From Escherichia phage nepoznato: a stretch of DNA of 64,000 nt. The stretch is taken from the sequence record NC_052658.1, one strand, 5' to 3'. The first letter of the stretch is position 1. Every line of letters begins with the position of its first letter. The notes under the pieces were generated by a model that made no database searches, had not been told where the DNA came from, and saw only the letters and a list, made by a program, of their open reading frames with translations. The translations under genes and the position numbers were made by a program. This document shows, in pieces, positions 4,720-14,341 of this stretch.

Positions 4720-5325
4720 ATGCAACATAGTGTAGTAGTCAACATGCCGAATAGTGGGGATAAATCTTTTGGTGTCCCTGCTAAAAAAGTGTGGAAAGCC
4801 CATTTTCATCTTACTTTATCTAACGTTAGTTCTGAAGAGTTGATGAAAGCAGCTAAGATTATTGGTGCCAAATGCACAACAATTGATTTACATCGGGATA
4901 CAAAGTCTCAACGTGATCGTATGTTAACAAAGTATCAAAGCGATCTCGACACTACTTTAATGTTGCAGTGTGTAGAAAAACTTGAGAATGCAGGTTTCAA
5001 TGTTGTTCGTTACAAACTGGAACGAATGTTTAAACATGTTGCCTGTGTTCTTTTCATGGATCTAAGTAAAGAAAATTATGGAGAAGTTCACATTAAGACT
5101 TCAGCAAGTGATCCCGAAGTAGAAACAAACTTCTTCCGTATTTCTTCTAATGCTGAAGAAATTGATTACCGATTTTATAATGCTCGCTTATATTCCGCAG
5201 AAGATAAGTTGCGTTTCAATGAAGCGTATGATATGCTCTTGAACAGTGGGATACAGATAAAAGGCTACCACATAGAACAAGTGGTAGTGGACAGTAATCT
5301 TAACTTAGACGCATGGTGGGCTTAA
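4720..5325 (+). CDS. Hypothetical protein; weak 2H-phosphoesterase-like HxTx motif
   Basis: GAGGAG SD; one HLTL (H-x-T-x) motif near residue 30; a second canonical motif is not clear (VHIKTS). Confidence 0.45.
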   Translation: MQHSVVVNMPNSGDKSFGVPAKKVWKAHFHLTLSNVSSEELMKAAKIIGAKCTTIDLHRDTKSQRDRMLTKYQSDLDTTLMLQCVEKLENAGFNVVRYKLERMFKHVACVLFMDLSKENYGEVHIKTSASDPEVETNFFRISSNAEEIDYRFYNARLYSAEDKLRFNEAYDMLLNSGIQIKGYHIEQVVVDSNLNLDAWWA

Positions 5326-5326
5326 T

Positions 5327-5983
5327 ATGACTATTAAACATATCTCTTTTGATGTATGGAACACACTGATCACAGCAAACTCCAATTACGCAGACATGCG
5401 AGCCTGGACTATCGCAAAATATGGAGATATTACGGAAGTGGAAGCAAGAGCAGCTTATAAGAAGATCAAAAAGGAACTGGATAATGCAGCACTTCAAGGC
5501 AAAGCCGAGTGTGCAGCATACGCCTGGGAAAGACTTGGTTCTGAACTTGGGATAACACCTTGGAAGTCTGCAAAGCTTCGTTTCGAGTGTGAACAGTGGT
5601 TCCTTAAGTTTCCACCACACGTAGCCGTGGATCTGCCGATGTACTTGCTGTATCTTTCGGGACGTTATGATTTGAGTATTAAGAGCAATACCAACTTTAT
5701 ATCAGGGGATATCCTGCGTCGTGCTTGTAAGTTTGATAGTTGGAATTGTTTTGAGTTCACCCATTTCTCGGATGAAGCTTTACTTTGTAAACCAGATCCG
5801 CGATTCTTTGCTCGCACGCTCACATATTCTCCGATCCCTCTGTTAGGGCACGAAGTATTGCACGTAGGCGATAGTGAAGAATATGATGGAAAATGTGTTG
5901 ACTTAGGATTTAACTTCTGTCATATTAAGAACCCTAACGACTTACTAGAGAAACTTAAAAGAGGAGAAATTGTAAATGCGTAA
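5327..5983 (+). CDS. HAD-superfamily hydrolase-like protein
   Basis: N-terminal ISFDVWNTLI (haloacid-dehalogenase-type DxYGT-like motif I variant) and C-terminal HVGDSEEYDG (motif IV-like). Confidence 0.5.
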   Translation: MTIKHISFDVWNTLITANSNYADMRAWTIAKYGDITEVEARAAYKKIKKELDNAALQGKAECAAYAWERLGSELGITPWKSAKLRFECEQWFLKFPPHVAVDLPMYLLYLSGRYDLSIKSNTNFISGDILRRACKFDSWNCFEFTHFSDEALLCKPDPRFFARTLTYSPIPLLGHEVLHVGDSEEYDGKCVDLGFNFCHIKNPNDLLEKLKRGEIVNA

Positions 5984-6817: not shown

Positions 6818-7291
6818 ATGCTTAAAATGAAAACAGGTAATCTTATTGATGCCGCTAAAGCAGGTGAAGTAACTGTTATTGCTCATTGTTGCAATTGTAT
6901 GTGTAATATGGGGGCAGGAATTGCTCCGCAAATTAAACGAGCATTCCCTTATGCATATGCGGCGGATTTAGACACAATGGCTGGTGATCAGAGTAAGTTA
7001 GGTTCTTTTAGTTTAGGGGTGCCAGACGAACAATCAGACCCTTTGGTATATAATCTATACGGGCAATACCGTTACGGATATAATGCTAAAGGTCGTCAGT
7101 TGGACTATGATGCCCTATACGATGCACTAATAGCTATGGCTAATGATTTGCTTCTCCGTGACCAAAAATGTAAGATCGGTTTACCTATGATTGGAGCGGG
7201 ACATGCCGGAGGTAATTGGGCTATCATCCAAGTGATGATTGAAGAAACTTTAGTAAAAACAGGTCACGATGTGACTATTTATAAACTTTAA
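6818..7291 (+). CDS. Macro-domain (ADP-ribose-binding/processing) protein, divergent
   Basis: VTVIAHCCNCMCNMGAGIAPQI aligns with the macro VxNAAN..LxGGGGVDGAI region; LPMIGAGHAGGNWAII aligns with the second macro motif; 157 aa. Confidence 0.55.
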   Translation: MLKMKTGNLIDAAKAGEVTVIAHCCNCMCNMGAGIAPQIKRAFPYAYAADLDTMAGDQSKLGSFSLGVPDEQSDPLVYNLYGQYRYGYNAKGRQLDYDALYDALIAMANDLLLRDQKCKIGLPMIGAGHAGGNWAIIQVMIEETLVKTGHDVTIYKL

Positions 7292-7303
7292 GAGGAGATT
7301 AGT

Positions 7304-7525
7304 ATGGGTGTTTTTGCAGGTATTGTTGCAGTGGTAAGCTTTTTTGTTATTGCTTTTATGCTTAGTTTGATTCCAGCTTGGTTACTGTTGCTGGCTTACA
7401 ACTATGTTGCTGAAGTTATGGGTCATGCAGATATCACTGTCCCAGTAACCTTCTGGACCGTGGTTTGTGTTTCGTTTATTCTGGCTGTATTACGAGGAAT
7501 CTTTTCCTCTCATTCAACAAAATAA
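7304..7525 (+). CDS. Small membrane protein (two predicted TM helices)
   Basis: AGAGGAG SD; hydrophobic segments FAGIVAVVSFFVIAFMLSLIPAWLLLLAY and TVVCVSFILAVL. Confidence 0.5.
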   Translation: MGVFAGIVAVVSFFVIAFMLSLIPAWLLLLAYNYVAEVMGHADITVPVTFWTVVCVSFILAVLRGIFSSHSTK

Positions 7526-7528
7526 GTG

Positions 7529-7557
7529 TTGACATAGTTCTTAAAAAGAGTAAGATA
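7529..7557 (+). promoter_or_regulatory. Sigma70-like promoter upstream of terC
   Basis: TTGACA at 7529-7534, 16-17 nt spacer, TAAGAT -10-like hexamer; followed by a leader hairpin GCGGGGA/TCCCCGC (7569-7587) before the SD. Confidence 0.45.
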
Positions 7558-7604
7558 TATCACATGAAGCGGGGAATAGTTCCCCGCAAAGAGAGGAGAA
7601 AAGA

Positions 7605-8579
7605 ATGCAACTCGGTTTCCCAATTATTGATGTAGTTGTTTTAGTTGGTATTTTGGCATTGTCTATTGGTATCGATTTCTTTGGTCATAAAGAGAATAAA
7701 GAAATTGGAATTAAATCTGCTTTGCTTTGGTCTATTTTTTGGATTGCTTTAGCTTTAGGATATTACGCATTCATTTGGGTAGAACATGGTAAAGAGTTTG
7801 CCGCGCTTTTCCTAAGTGGCTATGTGTTGGAAAAGAGTCTTTCTGTAGATAACCTGATGGTGTTCATGGCAATTTTTGCAAGCTTTGGAATTAAGAGCAC
7901 ACATCTCCAACATAAGATTTTACTTTGGGGGATTGCAGGAGCCATTGTCTTCCGAGGTATTTTTGTTGCAGCAGGCACCGCTTTGTTTAACCTTCATTGG
8001 TCGGTACAAGTGTTGTTCGGTTTGATTGTAGCTTGGTCTGCCGTAGCTATCATCAAAGGTGGTGACGAAGAAGAGGATATTGATTACTCTAAGCATTGGG
8101 CTGTTCGTTTAGTAGGTAAAGTTCTGCCTGTGCACAATGCACTGGATGGTGAAAAGTTCATTACCATTAAGAATGGTATTAAATATGCAACTCCTGCTCT
8201 TCTTTGTGTGTTTGTTATTGAGCTTACAGATATTGTCTTCTCTTTTGATTCAGTTCCGGCTGTGATCGGTGTGACACAAGAACCTCTGCTGGTTTATTCT
8301 GCAATGCTGATGGCTGTTCTTGGTTTACGTGCGCTTTTCTTTGTGTTAAGTGTAGCTGTGAAATATCTGGTTCACTTAGAGAAAGCTGTTGCTGTGGTTC
8401 TGGTGTTTGTTGGTGTTAAACTTATGTATCACCCGTTCGGTGAAACACTTCATGCCAAGTGGTCATTCCTCCCGCATGATATTTCCCCTAACGTAAGTCT
8501 GATGATTGTTCTAGGCACATTAGCTCTTGGTGTTATTGCAAGCTTTATCTTCCCTGAAAAAGAAGAAGCTGCTGTTTAA
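7605..8579 (+). CDS. terC: TerC-family integral membrane protein
   Basis: Multi-pass membrane protein with the TerC signature EKSLSVDNLMVF and a second SFDSVPAV segment; 324 aa. Confidence 0.8.
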   Translation: MQLGFPIIDVVVLVGILALSIGIDFFGHKENKEIGIKSALLWSIFWIALALGYYAFIWVEHGKEFAALFLSGYVLEKSLSVDNLMVFMAIFASFGIKSTHLQHKILLWGIAGAIVFRGIFVAAGTALFNLHWSVQVLFGLIVAWSAVAIIKGGDEEEDIDYSKHWAVRLVGKVLPVHNALDGEKFITIKNGIKYATPALLCVFVIELTDIVFSFDSVPAVIGVTQEPLLVYSAMLMAVLGLRALFFVLSVAVKYLVHLEKAVAVVLVFVGVKLMYHPFGETLHAKWSFLPHDISPNVSLMIVLGTLALGVIASFIFPEKEEAAV

Positions 8580-8585
8580 TAGATG

Positions 8586-8610
8586 AGCCTCCTTCGGGAG
8601 GCTATTTTAT
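8586..8610 (+). terminator. Rho-independent terminator after terC
   Basis: Hairpin AGCCTCC-TTCG-GGAGGCT followed by ATTTTAT. Confidence 0.65.
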
Positions 8611-8621
8611 AGGAGAGACTT

Positions 8622-8972
8622 ATGAATAATTTTGATGAAATTCAAGAACTTGTTTGGGATTTATCTGGTGATGTGGATTACATTTCAGATTATCTTTCAA
8701 AAGTTTACCCTGGGGTAAGCGTTATGATTGTGACCAAAGATCCGATTAATTTGCCTCCTAATGTGGTAGCTTGTTGTGGAAGTGGTTCAGGAGAAGTAGA
8801 GCCTGTATCTCGTTGGGAATTAACTAAAGCTGTTTCAAAACGAAACGGTGAAGTTTTGAATATTGATATTGAACAAATATGGACTTCTCCAGCAGCCAAA
8901 TGGAATGATCCGAATGGTTGGGATTTGTTCTTCTGGGATAATGAAACTGATGATGAGGTATTTTTAAAATGA
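8622..8972 (+). CDS. Hypothetical protein
   Basis: ATG with SD; 116 aa; no motif. Confidence 0.45.
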   Translation: MNNFDEIQELVWDLSGDVDYISDYLSKVYPGVSVMIVTKDPINLPPNVVACCGSGSGEVEPVSRWELTKAVSKRNGEVLNIDIEQIWTSPAAKWNDPNGWDLFFWDNETDDEVFLK

Positions 8973-9214
8973 AATACTTGTTGGTTGTGTTTGAAAATAT
9001 CTGTTTTGCAATAGGGTTGTTTGTTGTAATTTTTGTATTGACAAGCGTAATCAACGGCAGTAAAGTGAGTTTATACCGAGATGGAGAGCAAATTTATTGC
9101 TTCTCTGGAGATTTCAAACACAGATGTATTAATAGTCAAAATGAGGAAAGCAAATATGAAAAAACTAGCCCTGATTTTAATTGGTTGTATCTTTTTAACA
9201 GCTTGCGAGGATGA
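8969..9214 (+). CDS. Hypothetical small membrane protein (uncertain; overlaps the lipoprotein start)
   Basis: N-terminal hydrophobic segment LLVVFENICFAIGLFVVIFVLTSV; overlaps the next gene. Confidence 0.3.
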   Translation: MKYLLVVFENICFAIGLFVVIFVLTSVINGSKVSLYRDGEQIYCFSGDFKHRCINSQNEESKYEKTSPDFNWLYLFNSLRG

Positions 9215-9593
9215 AACAAATCCTGCACAATACCAACAACCTCCTCAACAATACGCCCAACAAGGATCTGATGGAGATACAACTATTATCAACAATGGTG
9301 GCGGTTCTAGTAGTAGCGGTGTTGGTGAGTTTGCTACAGGTATGTTGTTAGGGCATATGATGAGCGGTGGTAGTAATCGTAGTGGCGGGGATTATAACGA
9401 TAACAGAACAATTATTAATAAACATTATAACACACCTAAACCGAAGACTAATTTTTATGGTAAGCCTAAACAAGAGACAAAAACTTATGAAAAGCCGAGA
9501 CAAACTTTTAAAACAAATAGTAGCTATACAACTCGTAAATCTTACAATAGCCCTTTAAGTAAAAAGAGTTCATCTCGTAGCAAGCGACGTTAA
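9156..9593 (+). CDS. Lipoprotein (signal peptide plus lipobox), Q/G/S-rich with a lysine-rich C-terminus
   Basis: MKKLALILIGCIFLTAC lipobox; GAGGA SD at 9143-9147; alternative ATG at 9141; low-complexity mature region. Confidence 0.55.
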   Translation: MKKLALILIGCIFLTACEDETNPAQYQQPPQQYAQQGSDGDTTIINNGGGSSSSGVGEFATGMLLGHMMSGGSNRSGGDYNDNRTIINKHYNTPKPKTNFYGKPKQETKTYEKPRQTFKTNSSYTTRKSYNSPLSKKSSSRSKRR

Positions 9594-9608
9594 TAAGGAG
9601 AAAAAACA

Positions 9609-10052
9609 ATGACAATTTCTATCCGTACTTCCATTACAGGTGTTAAAAGTTTGCCTAATGCTTTGCAAATTACACGCGCTTTGAGGGATACGTTCTCCGC
9701 TGTGGATGAGCATAAGATGCTTGATAATCTCTCAAATTGGCCTTATTTTCATTATTTTAAAAATGAAGACGACGAGTTTATAGATGCTGTTTCTTATGGT
9801 TATGATTTCGGTAAGGAGGTTTCTCCTGAAGAATTTGTAGCTATGGTGTTCCCAAACGGTTTGCCTACTCGCAGTAAACGTAAAAAAGGACCAAAAAACA
9901 AGAAACGTGCTACTAACAAAGCTACCATTTTCTTTACTGATGGCACACAATATACGATTAAAGATTTTGAAGAGGTATCTTATACAGCAGGTGGGAATCT
10001 TTCTTTCTACACCATCAAAAAAACAAAACCCTACGTTCAGCCATGTTTCTAA
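9609..10052 (+). CDS. Hypothetical protein
   Basis: ATG with GGAG SD; 147 aa; basic patch KRKKGPKNKKR. Confidence 0.45.
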   Translation: MTISIRTSITGVKSLPNALQITRALRDTFSAVDEHKMLDNLSNWPYFHYFKNEDDEFIDAVSYGYDFGKEVSPEEFVAMVFPNGLPTRSKRKKGPKNKKRATNKATIFFTDGTQYTIKDFEEVSYTAGGNLSFYTIKKTKPYVQPCF

Positions 10053-10206
10053 CATGATTGAAATGTTAGTAGAAGATATTGAAAGCGTGGCTGTGTTAGG
10101 TATGCATAAAAGCTTTTTAATTACAAATATTTCAGATTTCAGTGCACGTTTATCTGGCCCTGATTTTGAAGCCACGACCACGCATTTCACTTTTAAGGTG
10201 TAAGTT

Positions 10207-10797
10207 ATGCATACCGAGAGAGACTTGCAACTCTTGTGGTGGGAAGTGATGCAGGAAATAAAAGAAGATTTTCCTGTTTACTACAACATGTTACGTGAAG
10301 CAGGATATAAAGCTTGCGTTAGAAACAAAGTGAATAACTCTTTTGGTTGGTGCAATTACCGAGATAAGATTGTTGTTGTAAATTGGCACTTGCATAAGAA
10401 CTCCACAAGAGATATGATCGTGGATACAATGAAGCACGAAATTGCTCACGCTATTGATGGTTGTATGGGTAAGTTTAGTAGGCATGGTGCTCATTGGCAA
10501 AAACTGGCAGCAGAATTAGGGGCTAATCCTAAAGCCACTTCCAAAGAGCCGTTGAACCACGAATATAAATATGTTCTTGTTCTGGTAGATAGGTTTGCGA
10601 CAAGATGTGTTAGAGGTTATAATCGTAAACCTAATCGCATGTACCCAGGTAAGCAACCTAACATGTGGTTGAAATCAGATAAAGAAGGAACTGAAGGAAA
10701 ATTATGGTTGTATAAATGGGATGATTGGGTTAAAGTAGCTAAAGAGTACGGTGTTTCACCATATATAAGAGATGCAGAAGAGGAGAATGAAGAATGA
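10207..10797 (+). CDS. SprT-like zinc metalloprotease domain protein
   Basis: HEIAHAID (HExxH) in a SprT-like context, followed by ...HGAHW. Confidence 0.5.
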   Translation: MHTERDLQLLWWEVMQEIKEDFPVYYNMLREAGYKACVRNKVNNSFGWCNYRDKIVVVNWHLHKNSTRDMIVDTMKHEIAHAIDGCMGKFSRHGAHWQKLAAELGANPKATSKEPLNHEYKYVLVLVDRFATRCVRGYNRKPNRMYPGKQPNMWLKSDKEGTEGKLWLYKWDDWVKVAKEYGVSPYIRDAEEENEE

Positions 10798-11906
10798 CAA
10801 GTCCATTTTTAAAAGCAGCTACTGGTGGTCAGAAGAAGTCTGAAATGAGTGTATTCGCTGCAACAACAGATGCAAGTAAATCTGTATTCGCTCCAAGTGT
10901 GTTAGATGCCAGTCCTGTTTATGCACCAGCAGCACCGCAAGAAGTTCCAGTTTTGCCTGCTATGACCCGACAAGAGATCGAAGAGATTGGGGCAGAGGCA
11001 GGAACAACCTTGCGTTCCTTGAATGCCGAGGTATTAAAACATCAACGTAGTAATCAAGGCGATCAGATGAGTGAACGACTCACAGCTTTGATTAAACAGG
11101 CAAAACAACTTGATCCAAATTCTATTAAACAAAGCAAGGGTATTACTAAACTCATTAAAAAAGTTATGGGTATGAAAGAAGACCTGTTCGGGGAGTTTGA
11201 TAATGTTAATAACCGTATTGAAGAGTTGGTAAAGAACCTTCAAATGGATATTCGCAAAGAAGAAGATTCCTTGGTATATCTTGAAAAGCTACATCAAGCT
11301 ATTGGACAATATGCTGCAAGTTTGAACCGAGATATGCAGCTTCTAACAGCAACCTATGAAAAAGAAGAACAAGCTTTGGCTGCTCTTCCAGAAGATGCAG
11401 TAGAACAGCGACAAGTGATCCGAGATACTTTGGATCTTCTGGAGATTCGTATTGCAGATTTAAAAGCATTGCGCCTACTGTGTGTCCAAATGGGACCGCG
11501 TGTACAAGGTATGCAAAAAGTTTCTGCAAGCTTAATGCGATCTGCGCGTAACATAGTAAATAATGTTATTCCTGCTTACTCTGCTAACTTCTCAATGTAT
11601 ATCGAGAGTTTACGTCAAATGAAAGCAGCAGAGACGCAGAATAACGTTCTTGATGAATTTAACCTGGCAATTAAACTGGGTAGCGATCTTGCCACACAGA
11701 ATCAGATCGAAGCAGCAGCACTGGCTAACCGTCAAGTGTTGGATATTGAAACTCTGCGTCACGATCAGGAAAACTTGGTTAAGATGTTGGAAGAAACTAA
11801 CCGCATCAATACGGAAGCCCGTGCTGCTCGTGTTGATTATATTAATGAAGTTCAATCTCTGGAAGACGGGATGGTAGCTGCTGTGAAACGAGGGCTTGGT
11901 AAATGA
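10794..11906 (+). CDS. Coiled-coil protein, tentatively TelA-like (toxic anion resistance family)
   Basis: 370 aa, largely helical/coiled-coil; size and context (terC/terD neighbourhood) fit TelA; no diagnostic motif verified. Confidence 0.3.
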   Translation: MTSPFLKAATGGQKKSEMSVFAATTDASKSVFAPSVLDASPVYAPAAPQEVPVLPAMTRQEIEEIGAEAGTTLRSLNAEVLKHQRSNQGDQMSERLTALIKQAKQLDPNSIKQSKGITKLIKKVMGMKEDLFGEFDNVNNRIEELVKNLQMDIRKEEDSLVYLEKLHQAIGQYAASLNRDMQLLTATYEKEEQALAALPEDAVEQRQVIRDTLDLLEIRIADLKALRLLCVQMGPRVQGMQKVSASLMRSARNIVNNVIPAYSANFSMYIESLRQMKAAETQNNVLDEFNLAIKLGSDLATQNQIEAAALANRQVLDIETLRHDQENLVKMLEETNRINTEARAARVDYINEVQSLEDGMVAAVKRGLGK

Positions 11907-12100
11907 GAATCCGTATCTATATAATTGATGAAGACATTGGTGTCCGTTATGATGACGAAAAACGATTCGCACCGATGGGAGGCATATATCCCCCAAGTGT
12001 TCTAGCAGTTTGTCGTGATTGTTATATTTATGAAGGTTGTCGTAACTTCCGTAAATTCCAACTACTTGCAGATATTGACTTCAACGAGGAGGAGGAGTAA
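11903..12100 (+). CDS. Hypothetical small protein
   Basis: Start overlaps the upstream stop (translational coupling); 65 aa; acidic C-terminus. Confidence 0.4.
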   Translation: MRIRIYIIDEDIGVRYDDEKRFAPMGGIYPPSVLAVCRDCYIYEGCRNFRKFQLLADIDFNEEEE

Positions 12101-12271
12101 TGAAAATATTACGAGTGAATATTGAAACTGCTTGGTGTGGATGCAATGAGGTTGTGGATATCGAAATTGAAGATGATATGTCTCAAGAGGATATAGAAGA
12201 TCTTGCACACGAAACCTTTCAGGACTATTGTAATTACGGGTTTCATATTTTAGAGGAGGAAGAAGATGTTT
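12100..12271 (+). CDS. Hypothetical small acidic protein (57 aa, below the ORF-track cutoff)
   Basis: ATG at 12100 preceded by GGAGGAG; translation MKILRVNIETAWCGCNEVVDIEIEDD...; stop at 12269-12271. Confidence 0.4.
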
Positions 12272-12469
12272 AACTACGATAACGATCCTAATATTATCCA
12301 GTTAACCCGACAAGAACTGATCACAATCATTGAAGATGCTTTTATTGATGGTTGGAATACACAAGATAATGATTGGGGTGGACCCGAAGCTTTTCTGGAA
12401 CATCATAAAACGTATGGAGACTTTTGTGAAACCACTGTAGCTCTTGATAATCTGAAGGAGGGTTTGTAA
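12266..12469 (+). CDS. Hypothetical small protein
   Basis: GAGGAGGAAG SD; 67 aa. Confidence 0.4.
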   Translation: MFNYDNDPNIIQLTRQELITIIEDAFIDGWNTQDNDWGGPEAFLEHHKTYGDFCETTVALDNLKEGL

Positions 12470-13029
12470 TGGGTTGTTTTAGTTTTTTGTGTAAGGAATC
12501 TGGAAAAGCTGCCCTTTCTACTTCTTTCGACGGATCACCTTGTTATCTCTTTCTTTTGAAGGACGGTGTTGTTATTGAAGAGATGTATGGCAACTATGAT
12601 AGTTATGGTTGTGTTTTCTCTGGAAAGGAGGATGAAAATGGCGTTCGTGAACGGTTCGAATGGGCTATGGATTGGGGTAAGGTTTGTGATTTAATGCATT
12701 CCTCAAATCCAAGGGACGGTATTGCTATGGTGCTGGAAGAGTACTTTACAGGTGAAATCCCTACAGAACAATCTGACGGAGATCCTAATCAAGGTTGGGG
12801 TGATGGTGAAGAAGATCCAGATTGTTTTTTCAGCACAGAAAAGAATAAGTTTAAACGTGTTGACAACCCTTATCACAAAGTGCATAATACTCTCATTGAA
12901 ACAGAAGATGACAAGATGGAAATTGAAGAAGATCCTCTTGTAACACTTCCTATAAGTGAGTTACAAAAGATCACTAAGGAAGCTTACGATTTGGGCTTCA
13001 AAATTGGTAGAGGAGGTATGCGTGTTTAG
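12469..13029 (+). CDS. Hypothetical acidic protein
   Basis: Start overlaps the upstream stop; 186 aa; very acidic C-terminal half. Confidence 0.45.
   Translation: MGCFSFLCKESGKAALSTSFDGSPCYLFLLKDGVVIEEMYGNYDSYGCVFSGKEDENGVRERFEWAMDWGKVCDLMHSSNPRDGIAMVLEEYFTGEIPTEQSDGDPNQGWGDGEEDPDCFFSTEKNKFKRVDNPYHKVHNTLIETEDDKMEIEEDPLVTLPISELQKITKEAYDLGFKIGRGGMRV
12860..12888 (+). promoter_or_regulatory. Sigma70-like promoter (inside the 12469 gene) ahead of the first Ter cassette
   Basis: TTGACA (12860-12865), 17 nt spacer, CATAAT (12883-12888). Confidence 0.45.
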
Positions 13030-14096: not shown

Positions 14097-14341
14097 TCGA
14101 CGAGCTTGCCTCTCAAGTCATAGAAAATTATTGGCGCGAGAGAGAAGCTTTCATTATGCGCAGTCTCAAAGAGTATTTCATTGGGACTGTGCGAATGGAA
14201 GATATTGTAAGTAGAGTAGAGATTCATGTATGGCCCGATTATGAAGAATGGGTTGACAAAGAAAATGAAAATGCTATAATTCTTCGTATATACAAACCGG
14301 AGATAACATTAGGAGGAAGAAGTGTTAAACTTCGAAATTGA
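14093..14341 (+). CDS. Hypothetical small protein
   Basis: Start overlaps the upstream stop; 82 aa; contains the next cassette's promoter. Confidence 0.35.
   Translation: MIDELASQVIENYWREREAFIMRSLKEYFIGTVRMEDIVSRVEIHVWPDYEEWVDKENENAIILRIYKPEITLGGRSVKLRN
14253..14280 (+). promoter_or_regulatory. Near-consensus sigma70 promoter ahead of the second Ter cassette
   Basis: TTGACA (14253-14258), 16 nt spacer, TATAAT (14275-14280). Confidence 0.55.

Follow-up and report, generated by a model that had tools for sequence, protein, structure and literature searches.

Introduction

In eukaryotes, proteases that act on DNA-protein crosslinks have been studied in depth. In phages, SprT-like peptidases have been noted in jumbo phages (PMC7824862), in Arthrobacter cluster AZ phages (bioRxiv 10.1101/2025.05.26.655371), and in mycobacteriophages (PMC12363180), and all three studies made the same Spartan-based functional prediction. 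ArdC of plasmid R388 (PDB 6SNA) has a Spartan-like metalloprotease domain, binds nucleic acid, and protects incoming DNA (PMC7213743). We found no experimental study of any phage or bacterial SprT-like protein in the searchable literature.

Here, we describe a SprT-like gene of Escherichia phage nepoznato (NC_052658.1), which is located in the 64,000-nucleotide stretch of DNA that we analyzed (the window). An earlier note on this DNA had proposed that the gene product might clear covalent adducts from phage DNA or degrade a DNA-bound host factor, and we regard this as plausible. The gene and its annotation are already known from public records, so that our analysis adds confirmation of an existing annotation and prediction. 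Positions 7000-13000 of the window are 98% identical to the Klebsiella phage ZCKP1, to ESCO5, ESCO13, and phAPEC8_ev052, and to about 60 other Phapecoctavirus genomes, and the protein is encoded at at least 99% identity in 58 records (tblastn). Most of these records annotate it as hypothetical; that of Escherichia phage EF1-1 lists a "SprT-like family protein". In Cronobacter phage Cronuts and Streptomyces phage Faust, a distant homolog is entered as a SprT domain protein or a SprT-like protease. Annotations of this type are already widespread among phages.

Gene model and selective constraint

The coding sequence of the SprT-like zinc metalloprotease corresponds exactly to an entry in the ORF list, as the earlier note had stated. 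It runs on the plus strand from an ATG at 10207 to 10797, stop codon included, encodes 196 aa, and is supported by Pfam, PHROGs, and dN/dS in addition to the ORF list. All elements of the gene described below lie on the same strand. Compared with a 94%-identical relative in IMG/VR locus L014, the whole gene shows a dN/dS of 0.05.

In the GenBank/RefSeq records of EF1-1 and ESCO5, the coding sequence has 549 nt and its start is placed 42 nt downstream, at 10249 (Met15). We consider the ATG at 10207 to be better supported by the sequence than this downstream start because a Shine-Dalgarno-like AAGGTG (10195-10200), read from the sequence, lies 6 nt 5' of it, because residues 1-14 are conserved among homologs that are 46-66% identical (M1 and W11 are invariant), and because the first 14 codons have a pN of 0.057 against a pS of 0.30. 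As judged from the latter values, these codons are under purifying selection too, and the EF1-1 and ESCO5 entries probably shorten the protein by 14 residues. Overall, these comparisons indicate that the gene is real and constrained.

The gene just upstream is split in the window into overlapping ORFs at 9609-10052 and 9907-10203. EF1-1 and ESCO5 have A6 in place of the A7 run at 10016-10022 of the window and contain a single CDS of 594 nt here (197 aa, phrog_27550). This homopolymer indel may be due to an error of sequencing, may mark a pseudogene, or may be a site of slippage.

Family membership and active site

In the Pfam SprT-like scan that the earlier note had suggested as a check, the protein matched PF10263 with an E value of 4.2e-09 and 36.7 bits, compared to a gathering cutoff of 25.6, over residues 31-107 (10297-10527), the core of the protease subdomain. 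The assignment to the SprT-like family thus holds. The zinc-binding motif HEIAHAID, which had been read from the sequence, is present at residues 77-84 (10435-10458), and because the PF10263 match is well above the gathering cutoff, it represents far more than a chance HExxH. Within this motif, HEIAH (10435-10449) contains the predicted zinc ligands H77 and H81 and the predicted catalytic base E78; it is invariant in all 138 aligned family sequences and is aligned with HEMIH of Spartan in a profile search. Conservation and profile alignment point to H93 (codon 10483-10485), located in RHGAHW, as the third zinc ligand. This residue is likewise found in 138 of 138 aligned sequences (W97 in 137 of 138) and is aligned with the His of GHGPEF in Spartan. 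The third ligand is therefore a His in a downstream motif of the GHGxx[FW] type, as in Spartan, and not the Glu of gluzincins.

The SprT domain of human Spartan was the best PDB match both by fold and by profile, and the fold of the protease subdomain is closest to solved SprT domains. Spartan was reached by the family profile only; a single-sequence search of the PDB returned nothing useful (best match HtpX, E value 1.3). Similarly, a word-indexed protein search yielded 4 clusters, and the homolog set was obtained from an exhaustive HMMER search instead. The subfamily profile matched 3,043 cluster representatives at an E value of at most 0.001. Among the PHROGs, the protein belongs to phrog_6445 (E value 1.5e-63), a group listed as of unknown function; weaker matches were obtained with phrog_3768 and others. 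It had no match to the PADLOC anti-phage defence models at an E value of at most 0.001.

The sequence data make it very probable that the gene product is an active SprT-family protease. That it is instead degenerate, or a zincin-fold protein without proteolytic activity (serving, for example, as a binding module or hydrolyzing something other than protein), seems extremely improbable, since the catalytic residues are all invariant in the 138 aligned sequences, the gene is under strong purifying selection, and true proteases (Spartan, minigluzincins, Wss1) are the best matches by a clear margin.

The family profile additionally matched the minor capsid protein P4 of the chlorella virus PBCV-1 (PDB 6NCL, chain c2; E value 1.7e-3) across the HExxH...H-x-x-W region, which hints at a SprT-like zincin fold in this giant-virus capsid protein.

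Position within the Ter cluster

The earlier note had placed the gene between the TerC block and a TelA-like gene, and this placement is accurate. TerC (PF03741) is encoded at 7605-8579, 1.6 kb upstream and separated by four small ORFs, and TelA (PF05816) follows directly at 10794-11906. The phage Ter cluster also holds genes for a PRTase, a macro-domain protein, a vWA-TerF protein, and a TerD protein. The stop codon of the SprT-like gene and the start codon of TelA overlap by 4 nt (ATGA, 10794-10797), and a terminator scan revealed no terminator-like site between the two genes. Co-transcription and translational coupling of the pair are likely from this arrangement. Right after TerC, at 8586-8603, we observed a strong terminator-like hairpin (AGCCTCC-TTCG-GGAGGCT) with a T-rich tail.

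The order SprT-like gene to TelA is kept in relatives with protein identities as low as 46% (KP13-26, two Logan contigs with P0004 and two with P0002, and the IMG/VR loci L014 and L015), while the surrounding small ORFs vary. One explanation would be that the protease is a component of the Ter module and processes or regulates TelA or another Ter protein (TerD, vWA-TerF, or TerC), for example in the activation or turnover of a membrane-associated complex. The position directly 5' of TelA in every relative examined, the ATGA overlap, the absence of a terminator between the genes, and the hairpin after TerC are all consistent with this. However, when the fetched flanks (about 10 kb) of 84 other phage loci with a family member were searched by tblastn, none showed a gene for TelA, TerC, TerD, vWA-TerF, or PRTase, and in Klebsiella phage 05F01 the SprT-like gene is not adjacent to TelA, two other genes lying in between. 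A survey of TelA-bearing phages likewise spoke against a functional link. Moreover, the sister genus Justusliebigvirus (PHB05) keeps TerC, TelA (79% identical), vWA, and TerD, and its 147.7-kb genome contains no family member (six-frame hmmsearch, best E value 2.2 compared to 1e-62 for the window). The slot upstream of TelA in PHB05 (L095, 4081-4932) encodes an unrelated 283-aa protein without a Pfam match. A recurrent association with Ter genes in independent lineages was thus not found; all positive cases are confined to one phage subfamily. We consider a role within the Ter module very unlikely, and the significance that the earlier note had implied for the Ter context was not borne out. 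As shared ancestry explains the synteny when all positive cases fall into one subfamily, the position beside TelA is best read, from these comparisons, as inherited within one phage lineage and not as membership in the Ter system.

Several additional features of this region were observed. The small ORF at 9081-9593, between TerC and the SprT-like gene, contains MKKLALILIGCIFLTAC, which reads as a lipoprotein-type signal peptide including a lipobox; a Gly/Ser-rich stretch and then a basic low-complexity region come next, and the ORF has no Pfam match. The macro-domain protein encoded at 6818-7291 in the Ter cluster, which relatives list as a phosphatase, is hit by the DarG model of PADLOC (E value 1.6e-10) and could be a phage-encoded DarG-like macrodomain reversing DarT ADP-ribosylation of DNA. 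At 14253-14280, about 330 nt upstream of the TerD gene, there is a perfect match to the sigma-70 consensus (TTGACA-16-TATAAT, preceded by TG). The promoter scan returned 34 promoter-like sites compared to 23.5 expected, and neither it nor the terminator scan gave an indication of the timing of expression.

Genomic contexts of relatives and distribution

Fusion proteins of 655-1054 aa are encoded on seven viral contigs of IMG/VR; each combines a SprT-like domain at the N terminus, scoring above the Pfam threshold, with SNF2-related and Helicase_C domains (L071, 9911-12121; L073, 9902-11965; L078, 9899-12049; L079, 5021-7168; L084, 9893-13057; L085, 9914-11932; L088, 3356-5323). Judging from its domain composition, such a fusion is a protease predicted to ride on a dsDNA translocase. 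The L084 fusion also contains a LAGLIDADG insert, which is intein- or homing-endonuclease-like.

In RB43-like Pseudotevenvirus genomes (T4-type), the homolog is located immediately 3' of the genes for the large and medium subunits of topoisomerase II and 5' of rIIA (L004, 3857-4453; L033, 9869-10477). Type II topoisomerases are well known to give rise to covalent complexes of protein and DNA. One relative lies beside genes for ClpS, UDG, and PolB on a contig of 656 kb. Among 149 ORFs that neighbour the gene at 56 non-redundant viral loci, a Pfam census revealed no recurrent operon partner; the domains found were scattered over functions in DNA metabolism and included HNH (4), PD-(D/E)XK (3), topoisomerase IV/gyrase A (2), C5-methylase (2), and ResIII (2), as well as UDG and primase. 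In phage nepoznato itself, the gene is part of a same-strand module with ribonucleotide reductases (RNRs), four glycosyltransferases, primase/helicase, Dam methylase, DNA Pol I, and SSB.

Two further loci are of note. In L007, a gene for a C5 cytosine DNA methylase (5138-5980) is inserted just after TerC, and the SprT-like protein of this relative is 46% identical to that of phage nepoznato. C5-methylases form covalent DNA intermediates. On the short metagenomic contig L013, a SIR2-domain gene (140-943) precedes and overlaps the gene (895-1461) for the full-length homolog P0009, which is 38-40% identical.

The close subfamily is confined to phages: among 185,579 species genomes, the single match was the phage itself in a metagenome-assembled genome (MAG). 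A bacterial origin or the existence of bacterial orthologs was considered and rejected, as the genome-contig scan found only the phage itself and the NCBIfam SprT score was far below the cutoff.

The SNF2 fusions, the adjacency to topoisomerase II, the DNA-metabolism neighbours, the position of the nepoznato gene in the replication module, the basic C-terminal domain of its product, and the phage-only subfamily indirectly favour action on DNA-associated proteins, with most of these contexts coming from relatives that are 27-38% identical.

The C-terminal domain and a proposed function

The protease core is followed by a predicted basic, aromatic-rich domain of beta-sheet plus helix (aa 113-185, 10543-10761), which lacks a cysteine cluster. 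It has a pI of 9.55, contains 15 K/R and 11 aromatic residues in 75 aa, and shows KY, Y-x-RKP, and T-x-GKL motifs conserved in the family alignment. We found no fold, PDB, or Pfam match and no detectable relative of this domain. With a single cysteine and no zinc site, the second subdomain was not recognizable as a ZBD or zinc ribbon following the protease core, and when searched alone it gave no structural match to the Spartan ZBD. The protein ends in a disordered acidic tail, PYIRDAEEENEE (10762-10794; pI 4.05, pLDDT 36 for the last residue block), which is not conserved among homologs.

We propose that the protein would act as a cytoplasmic, catalytically competent PF10263 zinc metalloprotease, with H77, H81, and H93 of its protease subdomain (aa ~1-110) as the zinc ligands and E78 activating the water. 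The basic, aromatic-rich domain (aa ~113-185) may anchor the enzyme on nucleic acid or on a partner bound to DNA. The enzyme would be expressed together with the phage replication and nucleotide-metabolism genes, and its most likely task would be to cut proteins that are bound to the replicating phage DNA or covalently trapped there, for example roadblocks, trapped enzymes, or host factors on the DNA. Whereas family, active site, fold, constraint, and setting are observed, we infer the association with DNA, the class of substrate, and the timing. Cleavage of proteins on DNA may well be the mechanism of the phage enzyme, although we advance it tentatively.

Some of the same evidence can be read differently. 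By analogy with the protease domain of ArdC, the protein might serve host takeover or counter-defence by cutting one or a few specific host proteins, for example one involved in defence or belonging to the nucleoid, irrespective of DNA damage, with the C-terminal domain recognizing the substrate and not DNA; we consider this rather unlikely but far from negligible. It would fit the patchy, accessory distribution of the gene, which is present in Phapecoctavirus and the Klebsiella relatives and absent from the whole genome of Justusliebigvirus PHB05, as well as the restriction of the close subfamily to phages and a C-terminal domain unlike any known DNA-binding fold. In addition, the variable copy number in jumbo phages was taken by Iyer et al. 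2021 to suggest host-protein targets (PMC7824862), and ArdC with its Spartan-like protease domain defeats type I restriction (PMC7213743). The contexts that favour action on DNA-associated proteins speak for the preferred reading, in which the protease would work on proteins at the phage DNA.

More speculatively, the protein could be the first case of a class of DNA-tethered proteases specific to phages, which would strip host proteins from replicating DNA or destroy them there, as a viral counter-defence by Spartan-like proteolysis. A previously undescribed basic domain without cysteines (KY...YxRKP...GRKxETxGKL) would then replace the zinc-binding subdomain of SprT, and the targets would be clamped or covalently trapped host proteins, including defence or nucleoid proteins. 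We judge this proposal unlikely.

Small SprT-like proteins occur commonly in phages. Experiments on them would close a real gap in annotation and might show by what means phages remove protein obstacles from their DNA or inactivate host factors bound to DNA. The SNF2 fusions and the unannotated C-terminal domain provide concrete entry points for such experiments.

Comparison with known systems

The phage protein resembles ArdC in carrying a Spartan-like metalloprotease domain on a mobile element. [quoted passage not shown] Wss1 of yeast and the archaeal minigluzincins (projannalysin, proabylysin, selecase) gave structural and profile scores below those of Spartan and lack an equivalent of the phage C-terminal domain.

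E. coli SprT (YggI) belongs to the same Pfam family and is of similar size, in a bacterial-world context. A C-terminal Cys4 zinc ribbon is typical of bacterial SprT; unlike these proteins, the phage protein has no Zn_ribbon_SprT match in the Pfam scan. Its score against the NCBIfam equivalog NF003421 (21.1 bits compared to a cutoff of 175) rules out a bacterial SprT ortholog.

Human SPRTN (Spartan) has 489 aa, and the phage protein is, with 196 aa, far shorter. The identity to the SprT domain of SPRTN (PDB 6MDX/6MDW) is just 15-20%, and the basic region and the SHP, PIP, and UBZ elements of the SPRTN tail are absent.

Other phage SprT-like proteins, namely gp46 of Arthrobacter phage Lizalica, mycobacteriophage MPC00488, the jumbo-phage peptidases, and the RB43/KVP40-group homologs (phrog_3768), are just 25-35% identical to the nepoznato protein. 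Some of them contain a C-terminal CxxC...CxxC, which the nepoznato protein lacks, and their contexts differ, including a lysogeny cassette and the topoisomerase II/rIIA region, with none in a Ter cluster. Common to these phage proteins are the domain itself, a length of about 150-200 aa, the HExxH motif, a predicted similarity to 6MDX, and the prediction of a DPC protease.
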